DNA of 62,803 bases, the filler included, from Reclinomonas americana ATCC 50394 (lineage: Eukaryota): NCBI GenBank assembly GCA_048213135.1. It is 7 parts of 3 records of this genome, joined end to end, with 100 filler letters (N's around TTAATTAATTAA, not from the genome) between each part and the next. Parts side by side here need not be neighbours in the genome. Positions count along the whole stretch, not along the records: positions 15,244 to 33,596 come from PS015283.1; 6 more parts are not named here. The stretch is one strand, 5' to 3'. The notes beneath the pieces are model-generated. The model had not been told where the DNA came from. It saw only the letters and a program-made list of their open reading frames with translations, and did no database searches. This document shows positions 1 to 48,297 of the stretch, in pieces (positions within the stretch are counted from its first letter, which is position 1; each line of letters starts with the position of its first letter). The position numbers and the translations under genes are program-made.

Positions 1-498
1 GGCGCCTCCGCATCTTCGTTCATTGTGTGAGGACCGCCCCAAGTGCGCCGCGCGGACATAGGTGAGCTCACATGCACACAAGGCATGCACGCACTGCACA
101 CACAACCATGCAGCCACGGCAGCAAGCTGATGCAGCATTTCGTTTACAAAAAGGAAAAACACACATACACCTCAAACAGAAACCACGAGCATCGCACACG
201 CACACAACACAAGAACACACNNNNNNNNNNNNNNNNNNNNNNNNNNNNNNNNNNNNNNNNNNNNNNNNNNNNNNNNNNNNNNNNNNNNNNNNNNNNNNNN
301 NNNNNNNNNNNNNNNNNNNNNNNNNNNNNNNNNNNNNNNNNNNNNNNNNNNNNNNNNNNNNNNNNNNNNNNNAAGTGGGGAAGAGAGAAAAAGCGAAAAG
401 AGGGGGGGGGTGAGAAGTGCCGACATGCTCGACGCGATGTGATCACTCACTCACTCACTCTCTTTGCGTTTGTCTCTCTGTGCAGCAAACAACAAAAA

Positions 499-3400: not shown

Positions 3401-6400
3401 GCAACCGTGCTGCGTTCGTGCAACAAATCAGCCAGGGTCACATGCCGACGCGTACACTCGTCGGCTACTCGTTCCCCATTGAGTTTGTGTTTGCCGATCA
3501 CCTTGTTGCGTGCTGGCGAAGGGTTGTGTGGTGTTGAGTCTTTGTGCTCATTCCGTGTATCTTCACTGTAGGTTTGTGCGACGGCGTACATCTCCGGCAG
3601 CGACTCGTTCATGGTGGAGATGAACAATTCTGTTGTCCACGCCACTGTGCGCCCCATTAACGAAGCTGGTGAGTTGCACTGTGCGTGTTTGCTCGTTTGC
3701 ATCACAATTCCTCACCTCTTTCATACTTGCACGCCAGCTATTTTGTTGGTCATCAATCACGCCAGCCACACGGTGTACTGGCGAGAGGAGGCCGGTGGTG
3801 TTCGCATGATCATCGACAACAGCGTGTGCTTCTATCCAACGCAGAAGGACCCGTCAAAGCTGCGCGCCGAGGTGGCCGGCAAGTTGTTGCGGTGCGTGAT
3901 ATCCTACCCCTCTTGTTTGGTGCATGCTGATGTGCCTCTGACATGCTGTTCCATAGCTTCCTTGTGCCCGATGGCGGCCACGTGGACGCCGGCACGGCGT
4001 ATGCGGAGGTGGAGGTCATGAAGATGTGTTTGCCGGTGGTCTCGGCCCTGGGCGGCCGCGTGCATCACCGCATTCCCGAGAAGACGGCGCTGGAAGTCGG
4101 CGACCTGATTGCCGATCTGGAGTTGGACGACACGGCGGCCAGCATGCAGGCCGCACCGCTTAGCGACCCGTTCCCCGAGAGCATGCGCTTCCAGTTCTCC
4201 GACGTCAGCTTGCCCTCCGACTCGGCGTACCAGGTGTTGCAGCGCTCGCTGAAGGTCCTCTCGGGCATTATCGACGGCTACGCTTGTCCCGAGTCCATTG
4301 TTAAGGTACTCCCCGAGCTTTTTACGTGTGTGTATGTTGCTCTCCTGCTCTCGTGCTCACTCGTGGTGTTTGCTCCGTAGGGCATGATTTCGCGCGCTGT
4401 CGCCAACCTGCAGCTGGTGCTCGACGAGTCGGTGCCGTTCGACACATTTGTTGATGGCTTTTCCGTCTTTGAGAAGCTGCTGCCGCCACCAGTCGTCGAA
4501 TCGGTGCAGCGTGCCGTGGCGGCTGCGCGCGTCGACGGCGTGTTCCCGTTCTTTGAGTTGCAGACGTCGCTGGAGCCATTCACCGACGACAACCCAGAGC
4601 TGGGCACGTGGATGTCACGCTTCCTCAGTCGCTACCAGTGCCCGTGCGTGCCTCTCTGTTGTTGCACACCAAAAACACTGAAGTTCTCTTCATGCTGACT
4701 CTCCATACGCAGTGAGTTGATCCCTGTGCGCTCGCCGCGCACGCCATCGCCGACACTGTCGCCGGCCAGCTCCATGCGCTCCCTCAGCAGTCCACTGGAA
4801 AGCAGCATGCGGACAAGCGATTCGTCTGGGGACTTGTCAAAACGTGCGTGCAGTCTCACCAGTGTGTCGATGCAGACCTTCTTATCTTCGCTTCTGTGCT
4901 ATTGCGTTTGCATGACGACAGCGGTGCGCATCGACGATCGAGCACCACTGGCGCAGGTGGTCGGCGAGCTGCTGCAGCAGTACATTTCGACCGAGGAGCG
5001 TTTCGCCGTGGTGACCACCGACATCGAGATTGTGGCCAACCTCAAGGAGGAGTGCCAGGGAGATCACACCATGCTCTTTTCGTACATGTTTTCGCACGCT
5101 GGCTTGTCGTTGAAGAACACCGTTGCGTGCCTCTTCGCGCGTGCCTCTTCCCCGCTTCTTCCTTTACTCACAACAACCGACAACCCACAGGTGGTGCTGG
5201 AGCTGCTCAGTCTGATCCAGCACGAAGGACTGTGGTTCTCCAACGTGTCGCAAATGGTGCAGCGCTTGTGCTCGTTCCAGCGACGTGGCGGATACGGCGA
5301 CGTGCCGCTGCGTGCCAAGCTAATGTGCGCGCACTCCAAGCTCGTGTCGGTGGAGGAGCGCACCGCTTCGCTGCGTGAAATGATCGAGCGTGTGGTGGAG
5401 GAGCAAGGCAATGCAGGACCACCGGTGTCATTGGTTCGTGAAGCGCCTGATATTTGTGAAGTGCACTCCATCTTTTTCGTGTGCTCATGCTTGCGCAATT
5501 TTGCAGGAGAGTCTGGCGGGCGATTCGGTCTTCTCCATCGAGGCGATCATCTCCCTGTTTTACCAGGCCACTGGTGCGGTGCGACGTGCAGCGATTGAGT
5601 TGTACATTCGCGTGTCGCATCGCACTCTCCCGATTCACGAGATCCAGCATGTGGAGGTGTGTTGAGGGAGATACCGAATGCTGTGCCGTGTGTGTGACAA
5701 TCAATCCAAAAATATGACAGGTGGACGACGTGCCGGCGGCATTCTTCTTGTTCAAGCAACCGGAGCGCACGCCAGGAGTCGATGCGGAGAGTGGTGGTAG
5801 TGGCGGCGGCACTGGCGACAGCATGCAACTGCGTCGCATCCAGTCGATGGAGGACCTGCGCAGCATGCGACTGGCCACGGGTTTCCTCGGCGTGCTGCCG
5901 CACATGGACGATGCGGCTGACTTGCGCGAGGCAGTTGCGCGTTTCATTAGCGGTCTCGTCACGGGTCCACTGGAGAGCCATTTCGATCAGCCGACGCGAA
6001 ATTCGCACGTGTTGAGCATTGCGTTGCCGATGGACTACAAGAACCGCGTTGTCACTGACGACGAGCTGGTCACTTTGTTTTCGTCGAGCCTCGCCCCGTG
6101 CATTCCGCTTCTCACCGAGTTGAGTAGTGTGGCGAATCAGTGTGTAATATTTTTCTCTGACCGCATTCTCCCACAGGCATGGTTTCCGTCGCGTCACCTT
6201 TACTGTGTGCGGCACCAATGCTCCCGAGCGCTACCGCAACATTCGCTTCTTCACTTTCCGCTCGCGGTTCGACTTCAAAATCGATCCGCTGTACCGCGAC
6301 ATTGAGCCGGCCATGGCGCACCAGCTGGGACTCATGCGCTTGCGGAACTACGACATTGAGCTGGTGCCGTCCAACTCCAACCGGCCGATCCACATTTACT

Positions 6401-9400
6401 ACGCCAAGGCCAAGAACGACAAGGTGCGTGATGGGGAGAGGGAAAGGGAAAGAGAGAAAGAGAAAGAAATAAAGAGAGAGAGAGCCACACACGCAGAAAA
6501 GGATGTCTGAGAAAGAGAGAGAAATCTTGTTTGGCGCATGCTGATACTGGGCGTGCAATCATTCACAGGTTTCTCCGGGAGGCGTGTCGGATCAGCGGTT
6601 CTTTGTGCGTGCGCTGGTGCTGGAGGGCGACATTCCCATCACTGGACGCGGACAGGATATCCGCACCACGGAAATCGAGAACTTGTTCTTGGAGACGCTG
6701 AGTTCTCTCGAGCTGCTGATTGAGGACACCAAGACGTACGGGCGCACCTTCTACAACCACATCTACATGAATGTGCTGACGGTGTTCCCGACCAACGCGG
6801 AGCGCGGCCTCTCGGTGATCTCCAACATTGCCATCAAGTTGCGCCCGTAGATGCAGACAAACGCTGCGATCCCTTTTTCGCGACTTGATCTTGACCTCAC
6901 GGTGCTTTCAGCTGCGCACCACGCATCTGGAGCCTCGGTGTGCGTGAGGTGGAGATTCGCGCGTGCATTTCCACCCCCAAGGGCGAGATCCGTTCGATCC
7001 GCTTCGTCGCCAACAACTACCTGCGGTACGATCTCGGCATCCAGATCTATCAGGAGGTCAAGGACGAACTGAGCGGGTCGACTGTGTTCCGCTACCTCGG
7101 ACCGGCCAAGAGCAGCTACGGTGGTGTGCTCGAGGCGTACGACTCGTGGGTGCGTGCATGCAGCGCGCAAAGTTGATGTCTCTGTATGTGTTCCTGAGTT
7201 GATTTTTTGGTGAAACCAGGATGGACTGCCAACGACGACACCCTACCGGTGTCTCACGCCACTCGACCACAAGCGCATCGCTGCGCAAGTGCAGAACACG
7301 CCCTACGTGCACGACTATCCCGCGCTGTTTGAGTTGGCCGCGCAGGAACGGTGGCGCAAGTATCGCACCGACAATGCCGGCGCACCGATGACGGGCTCCC
7401 GCCACGCCAGTGCTGGTGCTGCTGGTGCGGCGACGGCGGCGGCGGCGGCGGGCGAGAGCGAGCCGGTGTTGCTGGCACCACCGCCCAGTTCGCGCGCACG
7501 ACGCCACCTGGCGACGTCCATGGCAGAGGGACCGGCGGGTCAGTCGTGCATTGAGGAGAAGATAGCTGTAGATAATGTGTGCAGGTGACTCATATTTTTT
7601 CGTGTCGCGCGCAGTTCCTGGACCTCGTCAATTGCCGTCGCTGTCCGAAGACGAGAGCCTCGTGACAGCCACGCGCCTTGTGCTGGGTGACGGACCCGAC
7701 GGGCTGCAGGAGGTGGAGACGGAGGAGTCGGAGGTGTTGTCGAGCACAGTGGCCATGGTGGCGTGGCGCATGCAGATTCGCACTCCCGAGTACCCGAACG
7801 GGCGGCCTGTCTACGTCCTCGCAAACGACATTACGGTCTCGTCGGGATCGTTCTCGCTGGACGAGGTTTGATGTCTGTGTTTCTGGCCAAAGGTTGAGGC
7901 AAGTGCCAACTCACTTTGATGTGTGCAGGATGCGCTCTTTGAGCGAGTGTCTCGTCTGGCGCGCAAGCACGGTGCGCCACGTTTCTTCATGGCCGCCAAC
8001 TCGGGTGCGCGCATCGGCCTCGATATGGACGTGAAGCGCCTGTTCCACGTTCTGTGGAAGAACGCAGAGTTGAGTGTGTGTCTGTGTGTGTCTTTTGTGC
8101 CTGTGATGTGGCGCGCTAACTCTGTGAGGGTACGCAACACGCACACACAGAGACCCGTCGCAAGGCTTTGATGGACTGTACCTGACGGAGAGTGAGCTGG
8201 CTTCGCTTCCCGAAGGCACCGTGTCGGGCTCATTCCAGGTGCACCCGAGCACTGGCGAGCGGATTTTCATGCTCTCGTCTGTGAACGGCGCCGATGGTGA
8301 GCGGGAGGGCTAGAAGAGCGAGTTCTTCTCCCATTCGAATTGTCGCTGACTTGTCATCAACACAGGCATTGGTGTGGAGAACCTGAGTGGCTCGGGACTG
8401 ATTGCCGGCGAGACCACACGAGCATATCGTGAGTCGTTCACGGCATCGTTTGTGACTGGTCGCACAGTCGGCATCGGCGCCTACCTCGTGCGCCTTGGTC
8501 AACGGTGCGTCGCTTCTTGTCGCCGTCCTCCTTCTTGCTTCTGCCAGCTCTCTTATCTAACTGTGTCTTGTGCAGATGCATTCAGAAGCGCGACGAGCCG
8601 ATCCTGCTTACTGGCGCTCCTGCACTCAACAAGGTACTGTGCCCTTGCATCAATCCGTGGCCCATTTTTTGTGCCAGTTCTGACGCAGCTCGTACACACA
8701 GGTCCTCGGTCGCACCGTGTACCAATCGAATGTGGAGATTGGTGGCACTCGCATCATGTACGCAAACGGCATCTCGCACCTGGTCGTCTCGGACGACTTG
8801 AAGGGTGTGGCGGAGCTCCTCGCGTGGCTGGCCTTTGTTCCCGAGACGGTGTCGTCGCCGCTCCCGGTGCTGCCGTCGTCGGATCCAGTATATCGCCCAG
8901 TTGCGTTGCTGTGCTGCGAGATCTCCGTGATCATGTGAGGCTGATTCGCATTGCAGGTGGTGGTGGCTCCGCTGCCGGACGGCTCACTCGATCCGCGCCT
9001 GATGCTGGCCGGTCAAACGGTGGGTGGCCTGTGGCGACCGGGCTTCTTCGATCGTGGCTCCTTCCGTGAGTACCTGGGCGGGTGGGCGCGCAACGTTGTC
9101 GGCGGTCGTGCCCGGCTCGGTGGTATTCCGGTTGGCGTCATTGCAGTGGAGACGAGGCTCACAGAGGCGGTGAGTGTGAAAAGAGGGAAGGGCAGGAGAG
9201 GTGGACGTGGTGCTTACGCTTTCTCTTTGTTGCGAGTCAGTGGCGACCAGCGGAACCCGCGGACCCCGACTCGGTGGAACGCTATGTGCAAAAGGCCGGC
9301 CAGGTGTGGTTCCCGGACTCGGCATTCAAGACTGCGCAGTTGATGGATGATTTCAACCACGGTATGTCACCGTGGCGGGAGGAGAAGTGATGACGCTGTT

Positions 9401-10432
9401 TGTGATGACATGTGAATGCGTAGGTGAGAGGCTGCCGCTGTTCATCTTTGCCAACTGGCGTGGGTTCTCGGGCGGTCGTCGTGACATGTTTGAGGAGATT
9501 CTCAAGTTCGGCTCGATGATTGTTGAGCGTCTTGTCGACTATGACCAGCCAGGTGAGAGCAGAAGAACAGAGGGAAACAAGACAAGAGATTCAGTGGCTG
9601 ACTATTTGTTGCGCTCATCTCAGTGTTTGTGTACATTCCGCCGGAGGCCGAGCTGCGCGGCGGTGCATGGGTGGTGCTCGATTCTTGGTGAGTGGGATTG
9701 CAAGAACCAATCCACATGAGCAATCCTTCCCCCTTACCACCACTATCCACTCTGTGCAGCATTAATGCGGCGCGCATCGAAATGTACGCCGACCCGTCGG
9801 CCTCGGGAGGTGTGCTGGAGCCGGAGGGCATTGTGGAGATCAAGTTCCGCGAGCGCGACATTCAGTCCGCGATCCAGCGTCTCGATCCGGTGGCCAATCG
9901 CTTGGCGGCCGAGCTCAAGGAGGCCAGCCGGGCGCCCGACAGCGCGGCGCGCTGCGCTGAGTTGCGCGCTCGCCTGACACAGCGGGAGACTGCGCTGGCC
10001 GGCACATATCACCGAGTGGCGGTGGAGTTTGCCGAGCTGCACGACACGCCGGTGCGCATGCAAGCCAAGGGCGCCATTCGCGAGGTGGTCCCGTGGGAGC
10101 AGTCACGCGCCTACTTTTACTGGCGTCTGCGTCGCCGTCTGCAAGAGGACACCGCGGTGCAGCGCATCATGCGCGCGGCGGGTGCCAACGCCACCACCGA
10201 GCGCATCGAATACCTCTCGCGTCTGCGCTCCGCCTGCGAGTCGCACGTCGACTGGTCCGACGACGCCGCCGTGGTGGCGCACCTGGAATCGCATGCCGAC
10301 ACCGTATGCGCCTCGCTGGAGCACGACGCCGCACGGCAGCGCATGCAGCACATGCTGCGCGAGTGGTGGCAGGCGAACCCGGCCGTGTGCGAACAGGTTC
10401 TCCGCGAGTTCCAGCCGCCCAGCAACAAATAA
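499..10432 (+). CDS. ACC1: Multidomain (cytosolic-type) acetyl-CoA carboxylase, multi-exon
   Basis: BC domain [60 protein letters not shown]; biotinylation motif EVEVMKM (~4005-4026); CT motifs [54 protein letters not shown] 499, TAA 10430-10432; about 30 GT-AG introns. Confidence 0.97.
926..1620. repeat. Fold-back inverted repeat (~926-1190) plus further degenerate direct copies of a GCTTGCAGGATCGCCATCTGAGTTCA unit inside ACC intron 1
   Basis: 1141-1190 is nearly the reverse complement of ~926-976; GGCAAGGAAAGAAATCTGAA pairs with TTCAGATTTCTTTCCTTGCC around a short loop; the core recurs near 1237, 1326, 1455 and 1576. Confidence 0.85.
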
Positions 10433-14436: not shown

Positions 14437-16914
14437 TCACGCGCGGTGATCAGCACCCGCCACTCCTGCAAAAAGCACACACAATATGAGTGAACTGACC
14501 ACATAAGCACGAGTTGCAACATTTCGCTGGCACACAAACCTGGTATCCGATTGCCTCGCAGGAACGCCACCACATCGTCGCATCGTGCCATCTCTTGCAG
14601 GAACGGGGTGATCTCGTTCAGCTCCGTGTCGTTGGGGTCGTCGAACCACGACGAAATCGGCAGTGCATTCTCCGGCTGGAAAATGTACGACGCCGGCGAG
14701 TTGTCGATAATCACTGTTCGTGAGAGCTCGCGGCCGATGCATGAGAGGTCCTGTAAGGGGGGAGGGTGAGCGACGGGGATAAGGGGGAAAGGGGGGAGAA
14801 GGGGAAAGGGGGAGGGGGAGAAGGGAGAGGGGAGAAGGGGAGGGGGAGGGGAAGGGGAGGGGAAGGGGAGGGGAAGGGGGAGACGCAGAGAGGGCGAGAT
14901 GCAAAGAGCGGGAGATGCAAAGAGGGGGAGGTGCAGAGAGGGCGAGACGCACAGAGGGCGAGACGCACAGAGGGCGAGACGCACAGAGGGCGAGACGCGC
15001 AGAGGGCGAGACGCGCAGAGGGCGAGACGCACAGAGGGCGAGACGCACAGAGGGCGAGACGCGCAGAGGGCGAGACGCACAGAGGGCGAGACGCGCAGAG
15101 GGCGAGACGCGCAGAGGGCGAGACGCGCAGAGATGGAGACGCGNNNNNNNNNNNNNNNNNNNNNNNNNNNNNNNNNNNNNNNNNNNNTTAATTAATTAAN
15201 NNNNNNNNNNNNNNNNNNNNNNNNNNNNNNNNNNNNNNNNNNNGAGGGCGAGACGCACAGAGGGCGAGACGCACAGAGGGCGAGACGCACAGAGGGCGAG
15301 ACGCACAGAGGGCGAGACGCACAGAGGGCGAGACGCACAGAGGGCGAGACGCACAGAGGGCGAGGCACAGAGAGGGGGAGACGCGCAGAGGGGGAGACGC
15401 AAACAATGAGGGCGAGACGCAGAGAGGGGGAGGTGCAGAGAGGGCGAGACGCACAGAGGGCGAGACGCACAGAGGGAGAGACGCACAGAGGGAGAGACGC
15501 ACAGAGGGCGAGACGCAAAGAGGGCGAGACGCGCAGAGGGGGAGACGCACAGAGGGGGAGACACGGAGAGGGCGAGATACAAAGAGGGCGAGGCGCAGAG
15601 ACGGAGACGAGAGTCGGTTCTGTTTTTCAAGCGAACCTTGACGTAGGAACCGCCGTGGTTGGCACACGCCTCGCGGAACAGCCGATGAGACACCACCTTG
15701 TGCTTATCCAGCTTGTCAATTACGGGGTTGGCGTACTGCAATCACAATGAGCAACAAAGGACTCCCCTCAGAAAAACAACAGCAGAGACAGGAGAAGACA
15801 CACACCTTGCTGAGACTGGCCGTGAAAATCACCACCTCAAACAACTCGCCCATGGCCTTCATAAACTTCTCCACAAATGGCCGCTGCACAAACACGAAAC
15901 AACATAAGCCACTGACCATCACTCATCGCAGCGCACAAGCAAACAAACCTTGAGCACATACACGTCGTGTCTAAACAAGCAAACAAGCAAACAAACAAAG
16001 CAATTAAGGCAATCTGCTTGCGAGGAGGCAAGGCATGAATATAAGGACGCACCGCACGTTGTCAAACTCGACAGGAATGATAAAGTCGCAGCCTTCCACC
16101 GGCTACACACAACAAACACAGAGTCAGTCAACAATACAAAAGACACAATTGTAATGAGGGAAATACACTCAACTCGGAATGAACTGTGCACGAGCGTCTC
16201 ATCGAGATCCAACACCAACGTAATGAGGTTCTTATTGCGGCCGGTTTGCGGCGGCAACAGGTACTCTCGCGAGGGCGGAGCTGTCTGCTGTTATTATTAA
16301 TAAACAAACACAAAAAAAAGTGAGCGACTCTGTGAAAGAGAGAGCTGGGGAAGGAGCAGGCGCAACTGGTGTGTCAAGTGACCGCCGTGGTGTGGGAATC
16401 CTCGGCTGCGCGCGCAGAAGAGTGTGAGAAATGGCCGTGTCGGACAACACACACTCTTCGCGTTCTTCTTCTTCTCACCGCTTGTGGCACCGGTTGGCGA
16501 TTGGTGAAGCAGCAGAACAGGCGACTCAAGAACCCGCGCTCGCCATCAGAAGCTACACACACACACACACACAAACGTGAGAAGTGTGTGTGTGACACAA
16601 CAAGAGAATCACGCGAACGCACACTTGACAACGCTGGAGGAGGACGAGGCGACACCACCGTGCCGCAAGCTGAGATCGGCATCCGCGTGATGCTCATGCC
16701 CAGGAGTCACCTTTTGTGTCACAAAAAAAACAACAAGAGAGTGAGTACACAGAGAGAGCCGCACAAGGCCATTTCACGCTCACAAAACAAACAAACAAAC
16801 AAAGCGTGTGTGTTTAGCGTGTGCGTGTTATGTAACTTGGTAGATGGGGTTCTCTTCGCCGCCGAGATCGGGTGCGGCGGCTGAGGATGCGCTGCCTCCG
16901 CGTGATCCAGCCAT
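14437..16914 (-). CDS. CTD small phosphatase (SCP/CTDSP, FCP1/NIF HAD family)
   Basis: TLVLDLDETLVHSSF (DxDxT), KRPFVEKFM...[76 protein letters not shown]; N-terminal RLFCCF. Start codon inferred. Confidence 0.93.
14875..15610. repeat. 16-bp minisatellite (AGAGGGCGAGACGCAC)n inside an SCP intron, interrupted by a linker gap
   Basis: Tandem copies are visible on both sides of the 15144-15243 gap; the flanking exons join as SYVK|DLSC. Confidence 0.95.
15188..15199. other. Artificial six-frame-stop linker TTAATTAATTAA within N padding (also 33641, 39530, 47848, 53608, 59744)
   Basis: The same 12-mer is centred in ~100-nt N blocks six times; it is an assembly spacer. Confidence 0.97.
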
Positions 16915-17347: not shown

Positions 17348-18811
17348 ATGTTCAGAGGAGCTGTGCGCGCTGCTGTGTGGTCGCCGCCGCCTGATCACAC
17401 GCGACGGCTGAAGGATGCGCTTGGGATGGCGCCGCTCGAGCTCACGCAGCCGTTCACGGCAGAGGCGGTGATGGATGCAGTGGATCAGCTTGCGCCGGTG
17501 CCGTGCTTCCGGACGCCGGCGCACCAGCAGCTATATCATCGCCTTGCGTGGACTACTGCGATGTTGCAGCGTGACGCGTTTGTCGGCAAGCGAGGTGTCG
17601 GTTCATCGCTGTTTGTTGGTGGCGTGGGTATCGGCAAGACGACCGTGTTGCGCACGTGGGCGGACCTGTGCGGCGTCTTCTTCCCCGATGTGATTGCCGT
17701 GCACGTCAACTACGCGGATTTCTCCGCGCCGGACTGTGTCGTGGGCCGCAAGAGCGTGATGCAAGTCGTGCAGGATTGCCTAGCGCAGACGCACGGCATG
17801 CGCGTCCGCGAGGACGTGAGCACGGAACTGCGGCTCATCGACACCCTACAGCGACACAACAAGAGGCTGCTGCTACTGGTGGACGAGTTGGATCAGTTGT
17901 ACCGCCTGGGTGGCGTTGACGTACTGGTGGACTCGCGCGCAGCTCAGCTTGCAGATGTGGCACTGGGAACACTCGCCGAACTCACCTTCCTCGGCGATCA
18001 GGCCTCGGGCCTCATCAGCACCAACCTGTGTGGATCTGCTGCGGTTCTGCCCATGCTGATCACGTGCAATGCGAGCCCTGCGCTTCGCGGCGAGTTCCCC
18101 GCTCTCAGCAACGCGCCCAACCTGAACGGCACCAAGTACCGCACCGACCGCCTCCATTGCAGCACTCCTGTCGACACTCGAACTGCGGCGGCTGTGCTCC
18201 GCGGCTGCATCAACTTGGTCGGCGGAGAAGAAGGTGCGGTGGAGCTGCTCCACCTTTGTCTCTTTCTGGCCGGGTCCACACCACGCGCCCTCGAAGACAT
18301 CATCGACGCCACGTTGGACCGCACGCGCAATGAGCCTGACCAAGGCTACACCACTGCCAAGGTTGGACGCTTCCGGAGCGCCCTCTTGGTCAAAATGTGG
18401 GAGAAGAATCAGACGTTGCTGGTCCCGTTCATCAACGACGACCACTTTGACGTGGCCCCTGCTCTCCGCGGCGAGTGGACCACGTTCTCTCCGTTGACGT
18501 GCGAGGAGGCGTTTCAAGTGTGGCAGCAGCAGTGTGTCACTGATGAGGACGCCACGATGAATAGCGCCGTGGAGGCGCTGCTTCACCTGGACTTCCGCTG
18601 CTGGTTGGTGCTGGACGGTGTGGAGAACTGCTGCCCGAAACGCATTTATCCGGCTTCCGTGTTCCAAGTCGTGAGGCATCGGCTGGAGAACGGACGAGAT
18701 GGTGCGGAGAATCCCGTTCTCGTGGACGCTCGTCGCAGACTTGCAGAGAAGCTCGTTGACTTGCTCGGCAAGTACGCTCCAGGTGTTCTCGGCAGCTCGA
18801 CCGTCGATTAG
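17348..18811 (+). CDS. Intronless P-loop NTPase (AAA+/STAND-like), 487 aa
   Basis: Uninterrupted ORF with Walker A GGVGIGKT and Walker B LLLLVDELD, then a sensor-like LCGS; no introns, unlike neighbouring genes. Confidence 0.8.
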   Translation: MFRGAVRAAVWSPPPDHTRRLKDALGMAPLELTQPFTAEAVMDAVDQLAPVPCFRTPAHQQLYHRLAWTTAMLQRDAFVGKRGVGSSLFVGGVGIGKTTVLRTWADLCGVFFPDVIAVHVNYADFSAPDCVVGRKSVMQVVQDCLAQTHGMRVREDVSTELRLIDTLQRHNKRLLLLVDELDQLYRLGGVDVLVDSRAAQLADVALGTLAELTFLGDQASGLISTNLCGSAAVLPMLITCNASPALRGEFPALSNAPNLNGTKYRTDRLHCSTPVDTRTAAAVLRGCINLVGGEEGAVELLHLCLFLAGSTPRALEDIIDATLDRTRNEPDQGYTTAKVGRFRSALLVKMWEKNQTLLVPFINDDHFDVAPALRGEWTTFSPLTCEEAFQVWQQQCVTDEDATMNSAVEALLHLDFRCWLVLDGVENCCPKRIYPASVFQVVRHRLENGRDGAENPVLVDARRRLAEKLVDLLGKYAPGVLGSSTVD

Positions 18812-18970: not shown

Positions 18971-19338
18971 ATGGGCTGCGCTTCGTCGAAGGTCTGCGTG
19001 TGTTGGAACATGGTCATCTTTACAGTAGACACTCACTCTGCATCCAGCAACAACGCGCCCAGGAAGTGGTGGACACAGGTATGATGATGCGCTGCGGGTG
19101 TGTGCGGGCGTGTTTGTGTGTGTGTGTGTGTGTGCGGGCGTGTTTGTGTTCTCCGATTTTGTGTGTGATGTTTTTTTGATCGCGATCGACTCATCGTTCA
19201 TTTACAGTGCGACGCATGTTTGAGACGCAAGTGCCCGTGTTCCGTCACTTTTCGCAGGAGAACCAGGAGCGATTGATTCGTTCTCATATCTTGACGTTCA
19301 AGCTGCTGCCCCCCAACTATTATATGAAAGTCATTTGA
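18971..19338 (+). CDS. Possible ~60-aa protein with an N-terminal dual-acylation motif (MGCASSK)
   Basis: Splicing 18992-19047 and 19079-19206 gives MGCASSKQQRAQEVVDTVRRMFETQVPVFRHFSQENQERLIRSHILTFKLLPPNYYMKVI*. The second intron has GT..CAG ends and a TG tract typical of introns here. Confidence 0.3.
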
Positions 19339-19452
19339 TTTTTTTGACGTGTTCGCCCAGACTGCGTGAGTTCTTCTATTGTTTCACGCCCCTCGGCGCC
19401 TCCTTTTCCCGCTTCTCACTCACACTGGTTGTGAGCACTTTCTTATTTCTCG

Positions 19453-19566
19453 ATTGCAGTGTTGGTGCACGAGGTGGCTCGCTGCACGCCGGAGACATGC
19501 CGTGGACACAATGTTTAGTTTGCGCGACATATGATGACGTTGGTAGGGTTGCTCGTGCGGAATTAG
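19453..19566 (+). pseudogene. Degenerate relic of the HExxH metallopeptidase C-terminus of the 23680-26558 gene
   Basis: Translates IAVLVHEVARCTPETCRGHNV*FARHMMTLVGLLVRN* versus IAVLLHELAHCTPETRQGHGVEFARYLTVIVGEVLRM in the intact gene; in-frame TAG at 19516-19518 replaces Glu and the second His is lost. Confidence 0.8.
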
Positions 19567-19807
19567 AAACTGCGGTTCTGATGGAAGGAGAAGAAGTCTG
19601 GCAGCAGCACTGCAATTAGCAGTGAGGCATGTTGGCAGTGAAAATGGTCACGTGCAATGATTGTCGATCGACAGTCGAGAGTTTCAGGCAATGGCCTCAG
19701 CTGATCAAGTACTGCCAAGCACAATGTTTAAGGAAGGCAGGCGCGCGCACCTCAATGAGATCGGATTCACTCCGCGAGACACTACGTCACATCGAACTCA
19801 GTAGATG

Positions 19808-22800
19808 TCAGTTGCTGCACTTGAACTGGCAGGCATTCTGGAACCACTGAACTCGAGTTTTGTCACTGCATATCCATTGGTTGTTACCGCCGAGGTCGCA
19901 CTGGGCGTAGATGGCCGCTGGTATGGTAAGCCACTGATCAGGGACTTGACTGGCTATTTTGCTGTTTTCAAGCCTCCTGCAAAAGATAGCATGTATAAGT
20001 ACTCCAACCGAATCGAAGACAACTGTGCATTCCCAATCACTCTCTTACAAGAGGATACTCACAAGTAGGTGAACTGGCGGGTGGCATACTCAGCAGGCAA
20101 TGCACCGTTGAACGAATTCTCCGAAATATCACTGCATGTGAGTGGTTTCCAAGTAAGTTGATGCAGATTGGGAGAGAACAGACAATAAAACGAACATCCG
20201 CGTTACGTTAGGCAGCCCAACGAGTGGAGGATATGTTGTCAGGAGATTGCTGCCAACGAACCTGTGAAAAAACAGAGACACGATGGATGACACAGAGTGC
20301 TGACATGAAAACCGCGTGTCTACTGGAACTTACAGTCCCTGCAGAGAATCCAACTGTAGTAATGGAGGTGGTATTGACGAGAGACGATTGGGCCCAACAT
20401 CCCTGAGCGACAGCATGAGTGACTCACTATTGGACACCAGACGCACGCCCCGATGGCCGCGGCGATACGTATACTCAACAGAACAGTCCACGGATTTTTC
20501 ATGTTCAACAGTTCAGAAGGAAGTTGAAAGAGCCCGAGGTTATACAGCTTTCTGTACGCCAGTAACTCAGAGTCCAGGTAGGCAACAACAAGTATGAAGA
20601 GAGAGAGCACTCACAGTTGTGTAAGGCCCGTCATCCCCAGGAGTGAAAATCCAAGAGTCACTGGTTGAGAAGGGTTGACATTACTATATATCCCAAGAGC
20701 GAGCCTCTGCAGCTGGCGCATTTGCCCCATACACGAGGTCCCGAAGATGGCTGATGATGATACCGAATTAGTAACCATCACTTCACTGAGCGTTAGTAGC
20801 ATGAGAAAAATCGTCAATGCCGTAAGCAAATGCTAAATGGATTCAATACGCACAAGACGAGTAAGTTTGCCAGCTTGCACACAGAGGGCGCGATCACCGG
20901 CTGTTTGATAGCTATGGACCTGAGAGGCGTATAGTAGAATGTCAGAACACGATAGCAAAAAACACATGTAATCAGCAGCAACAAACGCACAGGGTCTCCA
21001 GTAGAGGCAACTGTAGCAGCTGGTCGGTGACACTCGGGCATGCAAAGTTTAATCCATATGTCATCCTGCGTGGGTGTAACTGTCGACGTCAGGGTGCTGC
21101 AGTGATTGTTAACATGTTGTCAGCTTGCAGCCACTTACAATGTAACTAATCCCTTTGCGTTGAAAAAGACGTCATGGCAACCATACAGATTGTCATTGTG
21201 CGACACATCACTGACAAACGGATGTGAGCAACATGGCGTTGGAGACACAAGAATGGCAATGCGTCAAATGGACAATGTACGAACACATTAACCAAGTGAG
21301 TAAGCGATCGAATCGACTCCGGCATCCGCCCATTGAGACCGTTGAAGGCAAGGTGTCTATCGACAAACAATATAGTCACCACCATTATTTTGATTGATTG
21401 ATATCCAATCAGCTCACGCACATTTCAGTGACCTGCGGAGCAGCGAAATTACTATGTACAAGTGTGTTTGCAACAACAACGAAAGGGAGACAGTAAAGTC
21501 CTCACCGCTTCCGAATCGTCGCAAACAACACCAAACCATTCGCAATGTGACACGTCATCCAAAAGCCACAAATCGTTTCGGCTCCATTTTGCACCGTTGG
21601 TCGCTTGGTACAAGTCCGTAAGGATGGATCGTGATAGATCAACTTCACAAAAAGTTCCTGACCAAGTAGTAGAAGCCGTGATTAGCGAGTGCACGTGGAA
21701 AGTCGTGTCGCGTAATCGAAAATATTGTGCAGCCACAGCTCACCATTGTACGGTGGTTGACAAACGCAGTAGCTGAGTTGGAAATAGTCGGACTTCTGGC
21801 ACGCACCACGGCCGCTGCAAGAGACGGGGTAGCGCTCGCTGGTGCAGTTCACTGGAATGTTGAAGTAGGTGCCCAAAGCCTGGTTCAGCAACGCGGCCTT
21901 AGTGTTAATGTTCGAGTCATTGGGAAACCTAAAAGCATATGCAGCAGTGAGAGCACACTTGTCAGCGTAGAGACGCACGGATGCACACGATGCTTACCAC
22001 GCAGAGGTGAAGAAATCAGATATGAGCTTGGTGTCAATCCGAAGCGGCACTGGCGAGTTGATCACTGTCGGGGCCCAGGCAGTGAAATTTGTCGATATAC
22101 TGTCACCACCGTACGTCGAGACATGTAGATTCTGCGACTGGGTGGCCTGTTGCCACTTCTGGTAAGCGGTGGTGTTTGTGTTCACCTTGGCGAGTGGGAA
22201 AAGTCAGATCGCACACAAATCGAGCAATGTTTTTCTTGCAAGTGCGACGCGAGAAGAACCTTTTGTCCGGCATGAACGAAGAAATCCACCGAAGCTTGCT
22301 CTGAAACAACAACGCCTTGTTCTTTAAGCTGCTCGTAGGTAGACACGTCCAATGTCGACTGTTCCATCATCTGCCGCAGGAAAGAAAAGAGTCGGATACA
22401 AATCCAGTACATACACCAGAAAAAGACTCACCACTCCACCAAGTTCCATCTTGGCAACGGCATGTGTTCCGAATCGGGTGATAAAGTCAACGTAAGCAGT
22501 CGACATGTCGCCACTCGTTGGAAGGTGTGCCACTGCATTTCGGAAAGCCAAAGAAAACGCCGGCTGCTGCGAGTACGGGTCGAACTGCGGAGAAGCAATC
22601 CAGTACGAGGCTCGAGCCTTGTTGAGGTAGAAGTAGGATGACTGCGACTGGATACTCTCCGCCATGTTGTGTGTGTTGACGTCGAGTGAAAAGGCAAATT
22701 TCCAGAACTTGGTGTCAACGCCGACGTCAATTGTCTTGCTGTTCATGATATCTTGCAGACTTTCGAACGCGCCACTTTGGGAGTCGAAGTTGAGGGTAGC

Positions 22801-23345
22801 ACTGCACGACACTTGAATTCCGAAAGGCACGAGCAAGTCCGACTGACAGGTCCCATCAGCAGTCACTGCTCATTCACATAGTATTGAGTAGTCGTTCGTG
22901 CACAGGAATCGTGACACCGCCCCCACCCCCCTCTCTCTCTCTCTCTCCCACACACACGCACACACACGCACACCATTCGCATACCATTATAAACAAACGT
23001 GAAGATGTTATCGCGAAACGTTTCAAAAATGTCGTCTGAGCCCTGAAAGAACGGACTGCCCTTCAGCACATCTACACCTTGTGCCAGGTAGTTGATGCCA
23101 GGCAGGGCTGTGGGGGAGACGCAGATGAGAGAGGTGGACACAGCATGAAGCACGCGCCTGCGACCATTACTTTTTCCAACACGGTCGTGTTGACCGCGCA
23201 TGCGCGTGTGCACAATGCTGGGGAATGCTTGCGTGTCTTCTGTCAACGACACCATGACTGTCTCTCGAGAGCACGATGCAAGCATGCTCAGGCATGACGC
23301 GCATGCCAAGAGCGCCACACACAAGAACACAAATCGACCTCGCAT
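19808..23345 (-). CDS. Predicted secreted MACPF (perforin-like)-EGF-LRR protein
   Basis: Signal-peptide-like MRGRFVFLCVALLACASC; MACPF signature YVDFITRFGTHAVAKMELGG (~22435-22495) and WAPTVINSPVPLRIDTKLISDF; EGF-like CSGRGAC...CVCQPPY...GTFCE; LRR N-cap LTDLYQATNGAKW..NDLW..CEWFGVVC; ~11 LRRs (e.g. LDVGPNRLSSIPPPLLQLDSL); Cys cap CDLGGNNQWIC...C...C; TGA at 19808-19810; no transmembrane segment seen. Confidence 0.88.
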
Positions 23346-30204: not shown

Positions 30205-31560
30205 GTGAGCACACGCACACACACGCACGCACACACACACATNNNNNNNNNNNNNNNNNNNNNNNNNNNNNNNNNNNNNNNNNNNNNNNNNNNNNNNNNN
30301 NNNNNNNNNNNNNNNNNNNNNNNNNNNNNNNNNNNNNNNNNNNNNNNNNNNNNNNNNNNNNNNNNNNNNNNNNNNNNNNNNNNNNNNNNNNNNNNNNNNN
30401 NNNNNNNNNNNNNNNNNNNNNNNNNNNNNNNNNNNNNNNNNNNNNNNNNNNNNNNNNNNNNNNNNNNNNNNNNNNNNNNNNNNNNNNNNNNNNNNNNNNN
30501 NNNNNNNNNNNNNNNNNNNNNNNNNNNNNNNNNNNNNNNNNNNNNNNNNNNNNNNNNNNNNNNNNNNNNNNNNNNNNNNNNNNNNNNNNNNNNNNNNNNN
30601 NNNNNNNNNNNNNNNNNNNNNNNNNNNNNNNNNNNNNNNNNNNNNNNNNNNNNNNNNNNNNNNNNNNNNNNNNNNNNNNNNNNNNNNNNNNNNNNNNNNN
30701 NNNNNNNNNNNNNNNNNNNNNNNNNNNNNNNNNNNNNNNNNNNNNNNNNNNNNNNNNNNNNNAGAAGGCACACGAGTGATCTGTGCGTGCGTGTGAGTTG
30801 AGAGGCTGACGAGGGGAGAGGGAAAAGACTGCTTTTGAGTGAAAAAAAACGCACTGCTGCAAAGAATCAGCGAATCTCGACATTGCCCCAAGCTCCGACC
30901 AATTGATCCAACGACTGCTACATCGTTTACTTCATTTTCTTGCCTCCTCGTGAGCGAACGCTATCCCCCCAGCTAACCCCCTCACTCTCCACACACCACC
31001 CACGTTGCGTAACGCACTCTTCACCTCCCCTCACTTGACACACACGCGCTGGCATCATCGCATCTTTTTCTCCTGCAAAAAAGATGCTCATGTCACCGCC
31101 TTGTCTCCGCGTTGCTCACACGCATGCACACACACACTCTGTCTCTTTCATGCACGAGCGCCTTGTTGCTCGACATGTCACACACCACTCCAGCACGTGC
31201 CTTGTTTTGCTTTCGTCACACATTCATGCTCTCACTCTCCACCTCTCGTCCAGCGCGCACACCTCCATCTCCGCCGCTCATCTGCTTCTTTGCACGCGCG
31301 CGTGTGCGTGTGCGTGTTGTCTTTGTCACGACGATGGCGCAATTGCCCGTCTTTTTTGTTTGTGTTTTTCCTCAAACACGCACACTTTTCTCTCTCTGTC
31401 GCACACACACATGCTCTCCCCTCACTCCACTGTGCGCGCACACGCTCATTGTGCACGATTCTTCTTGTGTGACGTGCCTCGTGCTGATTCTGAGATGCGA
31501 ATCTCCGCGCCTGTTTGTGTGCTCAAACACCACTCTTGTCTCTCTGTGCAGGTTGTCAAC

Positions 31561-33520
<1,960 letters not shown>

Positions 33521-33696
33521 GTATGTGTAGCGTACCAGAAAGAAGAAAAAACTCTCCTCCACACACTCACACTTGCTGGTGCAACGACCACAGTTCNNNN
33601 NNNNNNNNNNNNNNNNNNNNNNNNNNNNNNNNNNNNNNNNTTAATTAATTAANNNNNNNNNNNNNNNNNNNNNNNNNNNNNNNNNNNNNNNNNNNN

Positions 33697-37192: not shown

Positions 37193-40100
37193 ATGTCGAG
37201 CAAGAGTGCCGCAAAGACCAAGAAGCAGCTGCGTGCAGAGGCCGCAGCAGCAACAGCAGCAGCAGCGGCTTCGGAGTCGGAATCCGACTCCGAGGTGGAG
37301 ATGAAGCCGGCGGCGCCAATGCCGAAAGTGAAGCCGTCGTCGTCATCGTCGGCCGTGGCGCCGTTGAAGGCCAGCAAGCCGACGGTGGAGGCGAGCAAGG
37401 CCAGTGTGCCGGCCAAGAGCGCGGACAGTGCGCCTGCTCCACGCAAGCGCGGGCGGCCTCCGATGTCGCCCGAGGAGAAGAAGAGGAAAGCGGAGGAGCG
37501 GCAAAAGGCGACAAAGCCGGCGAAGAAGGCCGCGAAGCGTGCGCGTGATGAGAGCGAGGAGGACGAGGAGGAGAGCGATGCTGATGCTGATGATGAGGAG
37601 GAGGAGGAGGATGAGGATGAGGAGGAGCAGGAGGATGTCAAGATGAGCAACGGTGACGACAAGAAGAAAAAGGCGGCCGCGGCGACCAAGAAGACCAAGG
37701 GCCGCGACAAGAAGAAGACGCTGCTGAAGCAGAAGAAGAGCAAGGTGCGTGGCGGATGTCGCGTACGGATGCATGTTGTCACCAGTTGTCTCATGTGCGC
37801 GCTAATTAGCCGAGCAAGAAGACCGAGAAGGCGGATGATGACAGCGATGAGCAGAGTGGCAGCGACGACGGCGACGACGATGACGATGATGAGTACGAGG
37901 AGATGGACGTCGACAGCGAGGAGGAGGCCAAGAAGAAGAAGAAGCAGAAGAAGGAGCGGGAGAAGCTGAAGAAGAAGAAGGCGAAGAAGGCGCCGGCCAG
38001 CGACGATGACAAGAAGAAGAAGCCGAAGACGTCAAAGGCGAAGGCGAAGAAGGCCGAGTCCAGTGGCGAACCGCCGAAGAAGCGAGCGAGGAAGGCGGAC
38101 AGTGCGGCGGCTGCGGCAACAAGCGGGCCGCCACCCAAGCCCAAGATCGAGGAGGAGGAGAACCAGGTGCGTGTGGGGGCGAAATGTCGCGACATCTGCA
38201 CTTGTACACTTTTTCCCTCGCTTTCCACTTGTCGTGCTGCACGCTGCGTGGTACCTGCACGCGGGCGTAGAGGGACGGGGACCGTGCATTGTGTGTTTGT
38301 GTTGGTGATTCTTTCCCCGCCCTCGGAAACTAATCATGTGCATGTTCCCGCCATTATGCGCGTGTTGTCTGGCGCACATACAGTGGACTGCCTGGAAGGT
38401 TTGTCGCCCATTTGTTTTCTTGATAGTGTGTGTGTGTGCGTGCATGTGCTCACTCGTGGTGCCACGCAGGACTTTTACTTTGTTGGTGCGCATCAAGGCC
38501 ATTGTTGATCTCGATCTTATCGTTCGGCACACTCATGTGAGTCGTTGCAGGCACCGAGTGGGCCAACTTTGACAAGCTCTTCGAGTACCCGTGGAGCTTT
38601 GAGAATCTGGAAAAGTCACTCACGGAAGGCGATCTGAGCGACGGCAAGGTGTACATGTTTGGTGGCTCCGAGGGTGCGTACTGTTTTTTTTTTGGTGCAG
38701 TGTGCTGTGCTCCACATCAGCCCGCTGAGTGTGTATTCCCCACACGCGCAGCGCAAATGCTGCCGAGCCTAAGACCGACAGAGGGTGCCTCGGAGACGCT
38801 GGTGCTGATCCCGGTCATCTTTGCAGTTTCGTTTTTTTCTGTCGCCTTCTCGCTAGTGACGGGAGTGCTCATCGGCTGTGAATGCAGATCAAGTCCGCAC
38901 ACCCGCCGCCGACCGACGTCGGCATCAAGTCGGTGATGATGTTGAAGGAGACTGTTGTGCCGGGCTCGCAGTTGAAGCTCTCGTGGGTGCCGTACTTGGA
39001 GGAAGACATGTTGCGATGTGATGCTTGCATGACGATTGCACGACCGCCCAGCGATCCGCTGACGCGAATTTGTGTGCAGGGACGTGTCGACCAAGAAGCA
39101 GCGTCATGCCCTTCGGCTGTACTACCTCACTTGCGAACTGCGTGATTCGGTGCTGCGCAAGCTGCCCGAGGACAAGAAGCGCGAGTACGAGTATGGCAAC
39201 CTCTGTTGCGTCCACACGACACACTCTTCACCGCCGTCATGAATATGTCAATTTTCACACATATTCTTATCTCCGCCGCAGACGTGCAGCGAGAGAGCGA
39301 CGTGGGCAAGGTGGATGCCGACTCGACCGTGTCTGTCTGCCGCAATGTGGCCGGCAAGCAGTTGGTGTTCGACTACGACTGGGAGATGGACGACATTGAG
39401 GAGATTGTCGACGAGGTGGCCGAGCACCACGGTGTGTGCTCGCAACGTGTGGCGACCATCGGCAGCCTGCCAGCCTCACCCTTCTNNNNNNNNNNNNNNN
39501 NNNNNNNNNNNNNNNNNNNNNNNNNNNNNTTAATTAATTAANNNNNNNNNNNNNNNNNNNNNNNNNNNNNNNNNNNNNNNNNNNNCCTCTCCCCACCTTG
39601 CAGACCTGTCCGACAAGGCACACAAGGAGGAGATCACGGCCGCCATCAAGGAGGAAGTGGCCACGCGCAAGGAGTCCATCCGCGAGGAGAAGCGCCTGCA
39701 GCGCGAGCGCTGGGAGAAGCTCCCCGAAGTGCAGCGCAAGGCCATCAACTCGATGAAGGTGTACAAGTTCTACCCGACGTGCACGCACTGGGACATTTCG
39801 CACCTGAAGGTGGGTGGGAAGCAGGGAGAGTCAGGGAGAGAGAGCGAGACTCTGTAACAGCCCGCCAGCCTCTTCGTTCCATCATTTTCTTTCTCTGTCT
39901 CGCTTTCTGTCAGTCTCTGCTATCGTTCTTGTTTCCTCTCCTGTACCGCATGTGTCATCCTCTTCCATCTGTTCTCCGTCCTGTTTCACTGTGATTTCCT
40001 CATGGGTCCCTCTTCGTATTTCCTCCTGTGTGCAGCATTTGCCATTCTCGCTCTCTCTTTCTCTCTCTCCAGTTCACATCATACTCCTTCTTGTCTCGCT

Positions 40101-47308: not shown

Positions 47309-48297
47309 ATGAGCGAACCGTCAGCCAGTGAGTCAACGAGCGGTGAGCGCGCTGGTGCGCAGGGCAAGTTCGAGGGCGAAGTGCTCATCACGCAGGTACG
47401 CACGCACACACGCATGCCCGCACGAGGTATGTCCATTTTTCCACTCACGACTCTCAACGCACACACACACACAGGATGTTCTGCTCGCATACGAGTTGCG
47501 TTTGCACACTACACGGACGTGTACCACAATGCACTCACATCGATCTCTCTCGCACAGTCGCCTCCGTGTGAGTAACAGCTCCGGCAGCGCCATCGTCCGT
47601 TGCGTGCTCTCCTCAACTCCCCACCACACACTCTTCTCTCTCTCTCTCTCGCTTCTTACACTCCACATGCATGCGCAGTCAAGGTGACCGCCGATCTGCA
47701 TGTGATTGTGGACGATGAGATTGAGGGTGGAATGGCGGAGGTGGTCGAGGAGCTTTCCGAGTCGCGACCGGCCTTCATTTACTACTCATACCAGCATCGC
47801 CACNNNNNNNNNNNNNNNNNNNNNNNNNNNNNNNNNNNNNNNNNNNNTTAATTAATTAANNNNNNNNNNNNNNNNNNNNNNNNNNNNNNNNNNNNNNNNN
47901 NNNGATGATGGACGCGTCAACTACCCGCTCGTCCTCATCTGGTGCGTCACACAGCGAAGAGGAAGAAAGGCAGCAGTCAAATGATATCTCTCTCTGCTTC
48001 TGTTCCTCGTCTTGCTTCCCTGTCTGTTCACTCTCAAGCCTCTGTCTCTGTGTGTCTCGTTTCTCACCCACGCCACTCTTCGATCCAGGTACTCGCCAGA
48101 GACCGGCCACCCGCTGGAGCACATGCGGTACGCACCTGTGTGCGGTCCGCTGGCCAAGCACATGCCGGCCAAGATCCTGGAGACGCGTCGACTGGAGGAT
48201 ATCACTGAAGGTGAGGCCGGTGCTTCCTCCTCTTGTGACATTGTGTGCTCAACCTCCGTCTGCAGCGTGGGTTCGCGCCATGGCCGTGCGGCGATAG
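47309..48297 (+). CDS. GMF: Glia maturation factor (ADF-H family)
   Basis: AIVLKV, EELSESRPAFIYYSYQHRHDDGRVNYPLVLIWYSPETGHPLEHMRYA...KILETRRLEDITEAWV. Confidence 0.88.

Follow-up and report, generated by a model that had tools for sequence, protein, structure and literature searches.

A predicted secreted protein of Reclinomonas americana combining MACPF, EGF-like and plant-type leucine-rich repeat modules

MACPF pore formers rely on ancillary domains or partner proteins for finding their membrane. Among the protein-recognition scaffolds of innate immunity none is more adaptable than the leucine-rich repeat (LRR) solenoid, and a role for it in targeting a MACPF domain to membranes was not found in the literature searched. 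In the present analysis we ask whether a locus of the GC-rich eukaryote Reclinomonas americana, located in a 62,803-nucleotide stretch of joined genome parts (hereafter the window), encodes both kinds of module in a single polypeptide, and what such a protein might do. The gene predicted there from sequence is intact, with 17 exons, and it places a MACPF domain, an EGF-like module and plant-type LRRs in one chain, an unusual pairing of predicted pore-forming and recognition modules. Pore formation and ligand recognition by the predicted protein, reasonable in view of the families involved, are discussed below as its putative activities.

Gene model

The model was built by hand and checked by script. 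From 23345 to 19808 on the minus strand it reads as one open frame of 780 codons and a stop, giving a coding sequence of 2343 nt (780 aa) which is divisible by three and free of internal stops. An in-frame TGA precedes the ATG (23345-23343, minus) by 6 nt, and the frame closes with a TGA at 19810-19808. The 17 exons are separated by 16 introns, all of them canonical GT..AG and uniform in size (61-119 nt), and the ten consecutive introns 7-16 are all in phase 2. The donor of intron 3 (GTTCTT) is atypical and this intron has many in-frame alternatives; intron 13 and exon 7, an 11-nt micro-exon needed for the best gene model, have in-frame alternatives as well, and all domains survive every one of them. 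A tblastn search for paralogues across the window gave nothing better than E=3.3 outside the gene, and Rfam applied to the whole window returned no families. Coordinates of all features are collected in Table 1.

Table 1. Predicted protein features and exons of the gene, in positions of the window (exons listed from high to low)
Feature	Residues	Position	Strand	Remarks
Signal-peptide-like N-terminus	1-27	23265..23345	minus	basic MRGR, then hydrophobic core
Linker/pro-region	28-79	23109..23264	minus	no recognisable family; RRR stretch inside
MACPF domain	about 80-365	21998..23108	minus	end of exon 1, exons 2-4, introns 1-3
MACPF signature F-G-T-H-A-x6-G-G	252-264	22473-22435	minus	x6 = VAKMEL
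EGF-like module	Cys393-Cys430	21647..21846	minus	split by intron 5
LRR N-terminal cap	433-477	21506..21640	minus	C-E-W-F-G-V-V-C (C-x-W-x-G-V-x-C motif)
11 leucine-rich repeats	478-749	19904..21432	minus	exons 7-17
Cys-rich C-terminal tail	750-780	19811..19903	minus	Cys 751/761/774/778; TGA next
Exons 1-6		23345-22985, 22865-22432, 22370-22260, 22185-21998, 21928-21744, 21657-21506	minus	
Exons 7-12		21432-21422, 21356-21285, 21210-21139, 21065-20991, 20919-20854, 20785-20615	minus	
Exons 13-17		20551-20480, 20402-20334, 20261-20196, 20131-20063, 19976-19808	minus	

MACPF domain and EGF-like module

The first-pass annotation had proposed a MACPF domain with an FGTHx6GG signature, followed by an EGF-like module, and both were recovered. 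Pfam was run exon by exon on 16 exon translations. The lack of a MACPF profile match, which that annotation had named as speaking against it, did not occur: exon 2 matches PF01823 over profile positions 3-87 of 214 with 32.5 bits (E=1.2e-7), against a cut-off of 21.5, and exon 4 aligns to positions 148-198 (E=0.025, 15.2 bits). Since exon 2 is above the cut-off and exon 4 corresponds to the end of the same profile, the MACPF domain is complete in order. In the Atlas the top cluster for exon 2 was MACPF at 0.97, and the MACPF-only set held 16 of the 30 matches.

The MACPF signature has the general form (Y/W)-G-(T/S)-H-(F/Y)-x6-G-G. Five of its seven fixed positions are kept here, including G-T-H and G-G, with F in place of Y/W and A in place of F/Y, and the motif aligns to Y-G-T-H-F-x6-G-G of perforin-1. 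In the PDB no entry matches exon 2 better than the latter protein, yet the match, aligned over the signature region, is weak (E=0.17). Single-sequence AlphaFold2 of exon 2 alone gave a mean pLDDT of 34.1, unusable as a fold. When exon 2 was compared with bacterial and archaeal genomes in one scan, there were 80 pattern matches and one locus, 27 residues at 60% identity in a Saprospirales MAG, which was judged a chance match because no ORF of at least 100 aa covers it.

When all 11-residue windows are ranked by period-2 amphipathicity, the top 25 include stretches at residues 130-148 and 164-186; these residues lie where the first membrane-inserting cluster of a MACPF domain is expected. Residues 270-322, the expected second cluster, have no strong amphipathic peak, and the length of this second region is uncertain because of the several in-frame alternatives for intron 3.

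The EGF-like module directly follows the MACPF domain. Its six cysteines (393/402/408/419/421/430) are spaced 8-5-10-1-8, and the last one is preceded by Y-x-G-x-x-C in the stretch C-V-C-Q-P-P-Y-N-G-T-F-C. On exon 5 alone the Pfam matches to EGF_Teneurin (E=0.0012, 19.2 bits versus 24.3) and EGF (E=0.3, 11.8 bits versus 21.5) stay below cut-off, since intron 5 divides the module and leaves its sixth cysteine to exon 6.

Leucine-rich repeats and ends of the protein

Immediately downstream of the EGF-like module lies the LRR N-cap, described initially as being of plant/protist type. This putative cap carries the cysteine-tryptophan motif, and its LRRNT_2 match stays below cut-off (E=0.059, 14.1 bits versus 20.7, profile positions 25-41 of 41). 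Searched against PDB, exon 6 gave weak N-cap matches to GSO1 and PEPR1 (E about 0.6); glycerol kinase, its best PDB match (E=0.011), was judged to be due to chance.

The initial estimate of about 11 LRRs agrees with the 11 units counted, each about 21-28 residues long and of the consensus type N-x-L-x-G-x-(I/M)-P. Exons 7-17 carry one LRR per exon, except exon 12 with two. The central units 3-6 are degenerate and the canonical LxxLxLxxNxL is not found in every unit. A strict pattern of this type, counted over residues 478-745, occurred 4 times versus 2.2 +/- 1.3 in shuffled sequences, 328 of 2000 shuffles reaching 4; as this was not significant, the count was replaced by a profile test with a control. 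Searched in the PDB at E<=10, the profile built from the 11 units brought up 62 sequences with MIK2 at the top (E=3.5e-12), and all 15 rows at E<=1e-4 were plant LRR receptor-kinase ectodomains. A control profile, made from 11 non-LRR segments of this gene cut to equal length, matched no PDB sequence at E<=10.

The hydropathy of the chain fits a predicted secreted, soluble protein. The maximum of the Kyte-Doolittle profile (19-residue windows) is 2.53 at residues 5-23, as suits the signal-peptide-like start read in the first-pass annotation, and the second and last window above 1.6 (1.81 at residue 562) falls within the LRR region. For exon 1, Pfam gave no families at E<=1 and the Atlas no usable match. 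At the other end a Cys-rich C-cap had been suggested; the four cysteines in the last 30 residues are there, and the C-terminal exon with the tail gave 0 Pfam families and 0 PDB matches. The tail is not hydrophobic, so the protein is predicted to have no transmembrane or GPI-like end, and the earlier reading of a stop without a transmembrane segment is borne out by hydropathy both for the protein and for 1 kb downstream.

Possible function and competing readings

We consider that there is about an even chance that the gene product, some 750 residues long once its signal peptide is removed, is secreted and soluble and acts as an LRR-guided MACPF pore former. Such a protein would enter the secretory pathway and be released outside the cell or into a phagosome/lysosome-like compartment. 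There its LRR surface would bind a protein or glycan of a foreign cell, be it prey, a competitor or a pathogen, thereby concentrating the monomers on that membrane, where the MACPF domains would oligomerise and their two helical clusters refold to beta-hairpins, leading to a pore and, presumably, to lysis.

The nearest animal systems are perforin and the complement components C6-C9, in which an EGF-like module also follows the MACPF domain and the ancillary domains are C2 (perforin) or TSP1 and LDLRA (C6-C9). The protein predicted here resembles perforin-1 and C6-C9 in its predicted secretion and in a G-T-H...G-G signature succeeded by a six-cysteine EGF; it differs in having an LRR solenoid as its C-terminal half and in its marginal sequence similarity. 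Neither C2 nor TSP1 nor LDLRA was matched by Pfam at E<=1 in the 16 exon translations, and for this reason we do not file it as a perforin or a complement component. The LRR half is closest to ectodomains of plant receptors and related proteins (MIK2, FLS2, the RGFR-like At4g26540, BIR3, HSL1 and PGIP are top PDB matches of the repeat profile), with which it shares both the repeat consensus and the N-cap motif. One repeat per exon is also known from some plant LRR-RK genes. Unlike plant LRR receptors, the protein has neither a transmembrane segment nor a kinase, it has only 11 repeats with degenerate central ones, and it is joined to MACPF-EGF.

Receptor-guided pore formation is known from pleurotolysin A/B, the Bacteroidales BSAP toxins, domain 4 of CDCs and the plant CC-NLR resistosomes. 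The logic is shared, in that one module chooses the target by recognition and another forms the pore; the recognition folds are different, and the NLR resistosome has a cytosolic LRR and a pore module other than MACPF. Another likeness is to the MACPF proteins of chromerids, apicomplexans and ciliates, protist proteins with lineage-specific extra domains. Pairing of MACPF with many lineage-specific binding domains, e.g. WSC in Chromera, is already known (PMC4501334), and the four Chromera MACPF proteins have various architectures including WSC arrays (PMC4501334, Appendix 5). The words 'leucine' and 'LRR' occur 0 times in the text of that paper.

No description of a MACPF-LRR fusion was found in the literature searched, which is consistent with the statement of the first-pass annotation that no characterised protein of this kind was known; protein databases lay outside that search. 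A much bolder claim, that the gene represents a class of receptor-guided perforins new to science, in a unicellular eukaryote, with a variable LRR picking the ligand and the MACPF perforating that target alone, is in our opinion distinctly doubtful. If true, complement-like recognition and attack would have a counterpart in a single chain, one that arose independently of animals and plants. The fusion is a single predicted gene, and its weight hinges on transcripts and on the spread of the architecture. Should the protein be expressed and lytic, a microbial eukaryote would join specific recognition with membrane attack in one secreted chain, offering a simple system for how target binding triggers MACPF assembly.

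The strongest competitor, which we regard as somewhat unlikely, is that this MACPF protein is not lytic at all and serves as a scaffold, adhesion or signalling module, with the LRRs mediating protein-protein contacts within the producer's own matrix or wall, or during its mating or development. Roles of this sort have been proposed for astrotactins, BRINPs and Torso-like, MACPF proteins not known to form lytic pores. The low similarity to proven pore formers such as perforin-1, the two altered signature positions and the weakness of the amphipathic signal where the second cluster is expected all suit such a role, as does the fact that LRR ectodomains are general protein-binding modules and that the PDB relatives found here are of receptor type. 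However, the domain is complete in Pfam order with G-T-H and G-G kept, hydrophobic and polar residues clearly alternate in stretches of the first cluster region, and the protein is predicted to be soluble and without an anchor, which fits a released effector. A non-lytic protein would be one more perforin-like protein turned to other uses.

The composition of the gene bears on another alternative, that of a decaying or silent relic. GC content is 0.496 over the gene span, 0.507 in the coding sequence and 0.474 in introns. As noticed at first reading, the gene is more AT-rich than its neighbours: GC3 is 0.586, whereas 9 coding segments of the neighbours, taken together, have 0.749 (range 0.69-0.84), and TTA, AAT and ATA reach 5.1, 23.0 and 11.5 codons per 1000 versus 1.6, 8.9 and 0.8. 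Relaxed selection could lower GC3 and make rare codons commoner in this way, and the degenerate central LRR units would agree with decay. We nevertheless judge a relic very improbable, as all 780 codons are open over 17 exons, GT-AG is kept in 16 of 16 introns, the run of ten phase-2 introns is preserved, and the structural cysteines of the EGF and N-cap are all present. Low GC3 is most simply explained by the weaker codon bias of a gene that is less expressed than the housekeeping genes around it, or expressed in certain conditions only. A recent transfer from a prokaryote as the source of the lower GC was rejected because of the 16 spliceosomal-type introns and because intron GC is as low as that of the exons.

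There is only a slender chance that an adjacent MACPF-EGF gene and an LRR gene were read as one, or that the assembly is mis-joined. Such an error is conceivable for a gene model predicted from sequence, as the window was put together from contigs and includes linkers and runs of N, and the best model requires an 11-nt exon. The span 19808-23345, however, contains neither N nor linker. Exon 6 is a single open stretch in which the last of the six EGF cysteines is followed by the LRR N-cap, and neither a start nor an ATG-led signal peptide belongs to the LRR half itself; the two halves are therefore continuous in one gene. Intron 5, which splits the EGF-like module, is just 86 nt long, and the micro-exon can be replaced by 13 single-intron alternatives, of which 13 keep exon 6 in frame with exon 8.

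Least credible of all is a membrane-anchored LRR receptor-like protein with missed transmembrane and cytoplasmic exons: although the closest solved LRR relatives are receptor-kinase ectodomains, the stop comes directly after the Cys-rich tail, the minus-strand frames of 19830-18812 have no open 19-residue window with a Kyte-Doolittle value above 1.4, and the next ORF (17348-18808) is on the strand opposite to the gene. Neighbouring exons in the window encode an RRF2mt-like GTPase and L32e, and their PDB matches did not tell lineages apart. Among the neighbours, a TPI-GAPDH fusion was also looked for and GAPDH domains only were found.

Gene model and domains

The model of the MACPF-LRR gene was built by hand from a minus-strand reading of 23500-19600 and then checked by script. 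Its 17 exons, separated by 16 introns (all GT..AG, 61-119 nt), yield a coding sequence of 2343 nt that stays open through 780 codons up to its TGA, and no N run or contig linker was found within the gene. The ATG at 23345, two codons downstream of an in-frame TGA, and the stop codon at 19810-19808 (-) are exactly those proposed in the first-pass annotation. Many in-frame alternatives exist for introns 3 (donor GTTCTT) and 13 (donor GTTGAG). In the best model LRR 1 starts with the residues of the 11-nt micro-exon 7 (21422-21432, -), for which 13 single-intron joins could stand in without loss of frame; two of them leave the N-cap whole. We prefer the micro-exon, because V-T-E-I-H-L-A-F-N-G-L fits the repeat register and the donor and acceptor sites are good; none of these splice alternatives costs a domain. 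Intron 1, the longest (119 nt), carries a run rich in GT/GC and, after it, a (GA)n microsatellite (22920-22975, -).

Domain searches were run exon by exon, each exon serving as a separate query instead of the spliced chain. The MACPF domain noticed at first sight was recovered by Pfam on exon 2, whose score of 32.5 bits exceeds the curated threshold of 21.5 (E=1.2e-7, positions 3-87 of the 214 in the profile), and exon 4 matched profile positions 148-198 (E=0.025); together these matches predict a MACPF domain that follows the profile order from one end to the other, exon 3 being its variable middle. In the Atlas, the top cluster for exon 2 was MACPF at 0.97, the MACPF-only set holding 16 of the 30 matches. 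The closest PDB entry to exon 2 was perforin-1, at E=0.17 only, in an alignment spanning the signature (F-G-T-H-A-x6-G-G here, Y-G-T-H-F-x6-G-G in perforin). A scan of bacterial and archaeal genomes with exon 2 gave a 27-residue match of 60% identity on a Saprospirales MAG contig (locus L001, 3001-3090), which lies outside any ORF of at least 100 aa and was judged to be chance.

Single repeat exons, too short for Pfam, gave no match to its LRR families, and the strict LRR motif count did not rise above shuffles (4 observed, a value reached by 328/2000), for which reasons a profile of 11 aligned exon-coded units was used. It retrieved 62 PDB sequences at E<=10, headed by MIK2 (3.5e-12), At4g26540 (2e-9) and FLS2 (4.3e-7), and all 15 rows at E<=1e-4 were plant LRR receptor-kinase ectodomains. 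Going by their names, the others among the matches listed were LRR receptor kinases, receptor-like proteins, PGIPs and LRXs, together with a few LRR proteins of animals or bacteria and a single antifreeze polypeptide. The control profile, composed of 11 equally long non-LRR pieces of the same gene, retrieved nothing from PDB at E<=10, and the initial count of about 11 LRRs is borne out. Exons 8-17 all start in phase 2 and carry one repeat each, except exon 12 with two, a layout that is a mark of tandem exon duplication. Of the Cys-rich C-cap suggested earlier, the cysteines stand (four in the last 30 residues), whereas their identity as an LRR C-cap found no profile or PDB match.

Predicted secretion and proposed mode of action

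The N-terminus is the only strongly hydrophobic stretch of the protein (2.53 in a Kyte-Doolittle 19-residue window), in agreement with the signal-peptide-like start described before, and we infer that it would be cleaved as a signal peptide. A weaker window (1.81) at residue 562 falls within the solenoid. The claim that the chain stops without a transmembrane segment was likewise upheld, as no open hydrophobic window was detected in any minus-strand frame over the 1 kb that separates the stop from the next gene.

MACPF proteins such as perforin and C9 are secreted as monomers, which oligomerise and insert into the membrane. By analogy, this protein would leave the cell as a secreted monomer and be concentrated on a target membrane through binding of its LRR solenoid to a surface ligand, after which the MACPF domain would oligomerise and insert there. 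We give this LRR-targeted mode of insertion about an even chance. In its favour we counted the complete MACPF domain with G-T-H and G-G retained, and clear alternating hydrophobic/polar stretches in the expected region of the first inserting cluster (residues 130-148 and 164-186); against it, the low similarity to proven pore formers, two altered signature positions, a weak and uncertain second cluster, and the degenerate central repeats. A non-lytic role of the protein seems rather unlikely.

One gene and its relation to known proteins

Six cysteines in an EGF pattern follow the MACPF domain (Cys 393, 402, 408, 419, 421, 430); the module stayed below the Pfam threshold in the exon-wise search because intron 5 splits it. 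Exon 6, a single open stretch, closes this module with the sixth cysteine and opens the LRR cap with C-E-W-F-G-V-V-C, where LRRNT_2 matched below cut-off (E=0.059) and the PDB search weakly matched the GSO1 and PEPR1 N-caps. That two genes were merged into one model is very improbable, given this shared exon, an intron 5 of just 86 nt, and an LRR half with no signal peptide of its own; the earlier placing of MACPF and LRR in one gene holds.

The MACPF-EGF core is the same as in perforin and C6-C9, whereas their C2, TSP1 and LDLRA domains are absent (Pfam, exon-wise), which places the protein outside those subfamilies. Its LRR half is similar to receptor ectodomains of the plant type; the protein has neither transmembrane segment nor kinase. 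Judged by titles and abstract openings, the plant-immunity and invertebrate-immunome papers listed name MACPF and LRR separately, and no paper with joined MACPF-LRR names was found. Neither 'leucine' nor 'LRR' appears in the passages of PMC8986115. PMC4501334 describes chromerid MACPF proteins with 'unique architectures', WSC arrays and a DERM domain; its text mentions no LRR. Figure 3-figure supplement 4E and Supplementary file 5 of that paper may bear on this. No MACPF-LRR protein is thus described in the literature searched, and the claim is limited to those papers.

Composition and surroundings

The AT-richness first remarked on was confirmed: GC3 is 0.586, compared with a pooled 0.749 for nine neighbouring coding segments (each 0.69-0.84), and TTA, AAT and ATA are, per 1000 codons, 3 to 14 times as frequent as in neighbours. 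GC amounts to 0.496 over the gene span, 0.507 in the coding sequence and 0.474 in introns; the 1-kb bins of 19001-23000 have 0.48-0.51, most N-free bins 0.54-0.62. Because the introns share the low GC and number 16, we interpret the gene as weakly biased, of presumably low or conditional expression, and reject recent transfer as the source.

The neighbours are ordinary, and the window holds no paralogue of the gene and no Rfam family.

Features surrounding the MACPF-LRR gene
Feature	Position	Strand	Evidence
Acetyl-CoA carboxylase, multi-exon, eukaryotic-type	about 1500-10430 (1529-10429)	+	Pfam domains in order: Biotin_carb_N, CPSase_L_D2, Biotin_carb_C, ACCA_BT, Biotin_lipoyl, ACC_central, Carboxyl_trans
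487-codon uninterrupted open frame	17348-18808	+	AAA_22 P-loop, sub-threshold (E=9e-5, 23.2 bits vs 27)
GAPDH, several small exons	about 31830-33490 (31829-33492)	+	Gp_dh_N, Gp_dh_C
Mitochondrial EF-G2/RRF2-like GTPase, multi-exon	about 40560-43280 (40557-43284)	-	PDB: GTP-binding exon closest to mitochondrial ribosome-releasing factor 2 (EF-G2mt) chains, E=1.2e-45; EFG_III, EF-G_D2, EFG_C downstream
Ribosomal protein L32e	46769	+	

The 487-codon frame (GC3 0.74) and the MACPF-LRR gene are arranged tail to tail. Upstream of GAPDH the search found no triose-phosphate isomerase domain, though an N run there (30243-30762) could hide one. The 32001-33000 bin in the GAPDH region has very strong strand skews (GC -0.37, AT -0.56), which suggests a C/T-rich intron. 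Six identical 100-base blocks (15144-15243, 33597-33696, 39486-39585, 47804-47903, 53564-53663 and 59700-59799) are read as linkers in a scaffold of joined contigs, across which the order of genes is the assemblers' inference; each consists of 44 N, TTAATTAATTAA and 44 N, with stops in all six frames.
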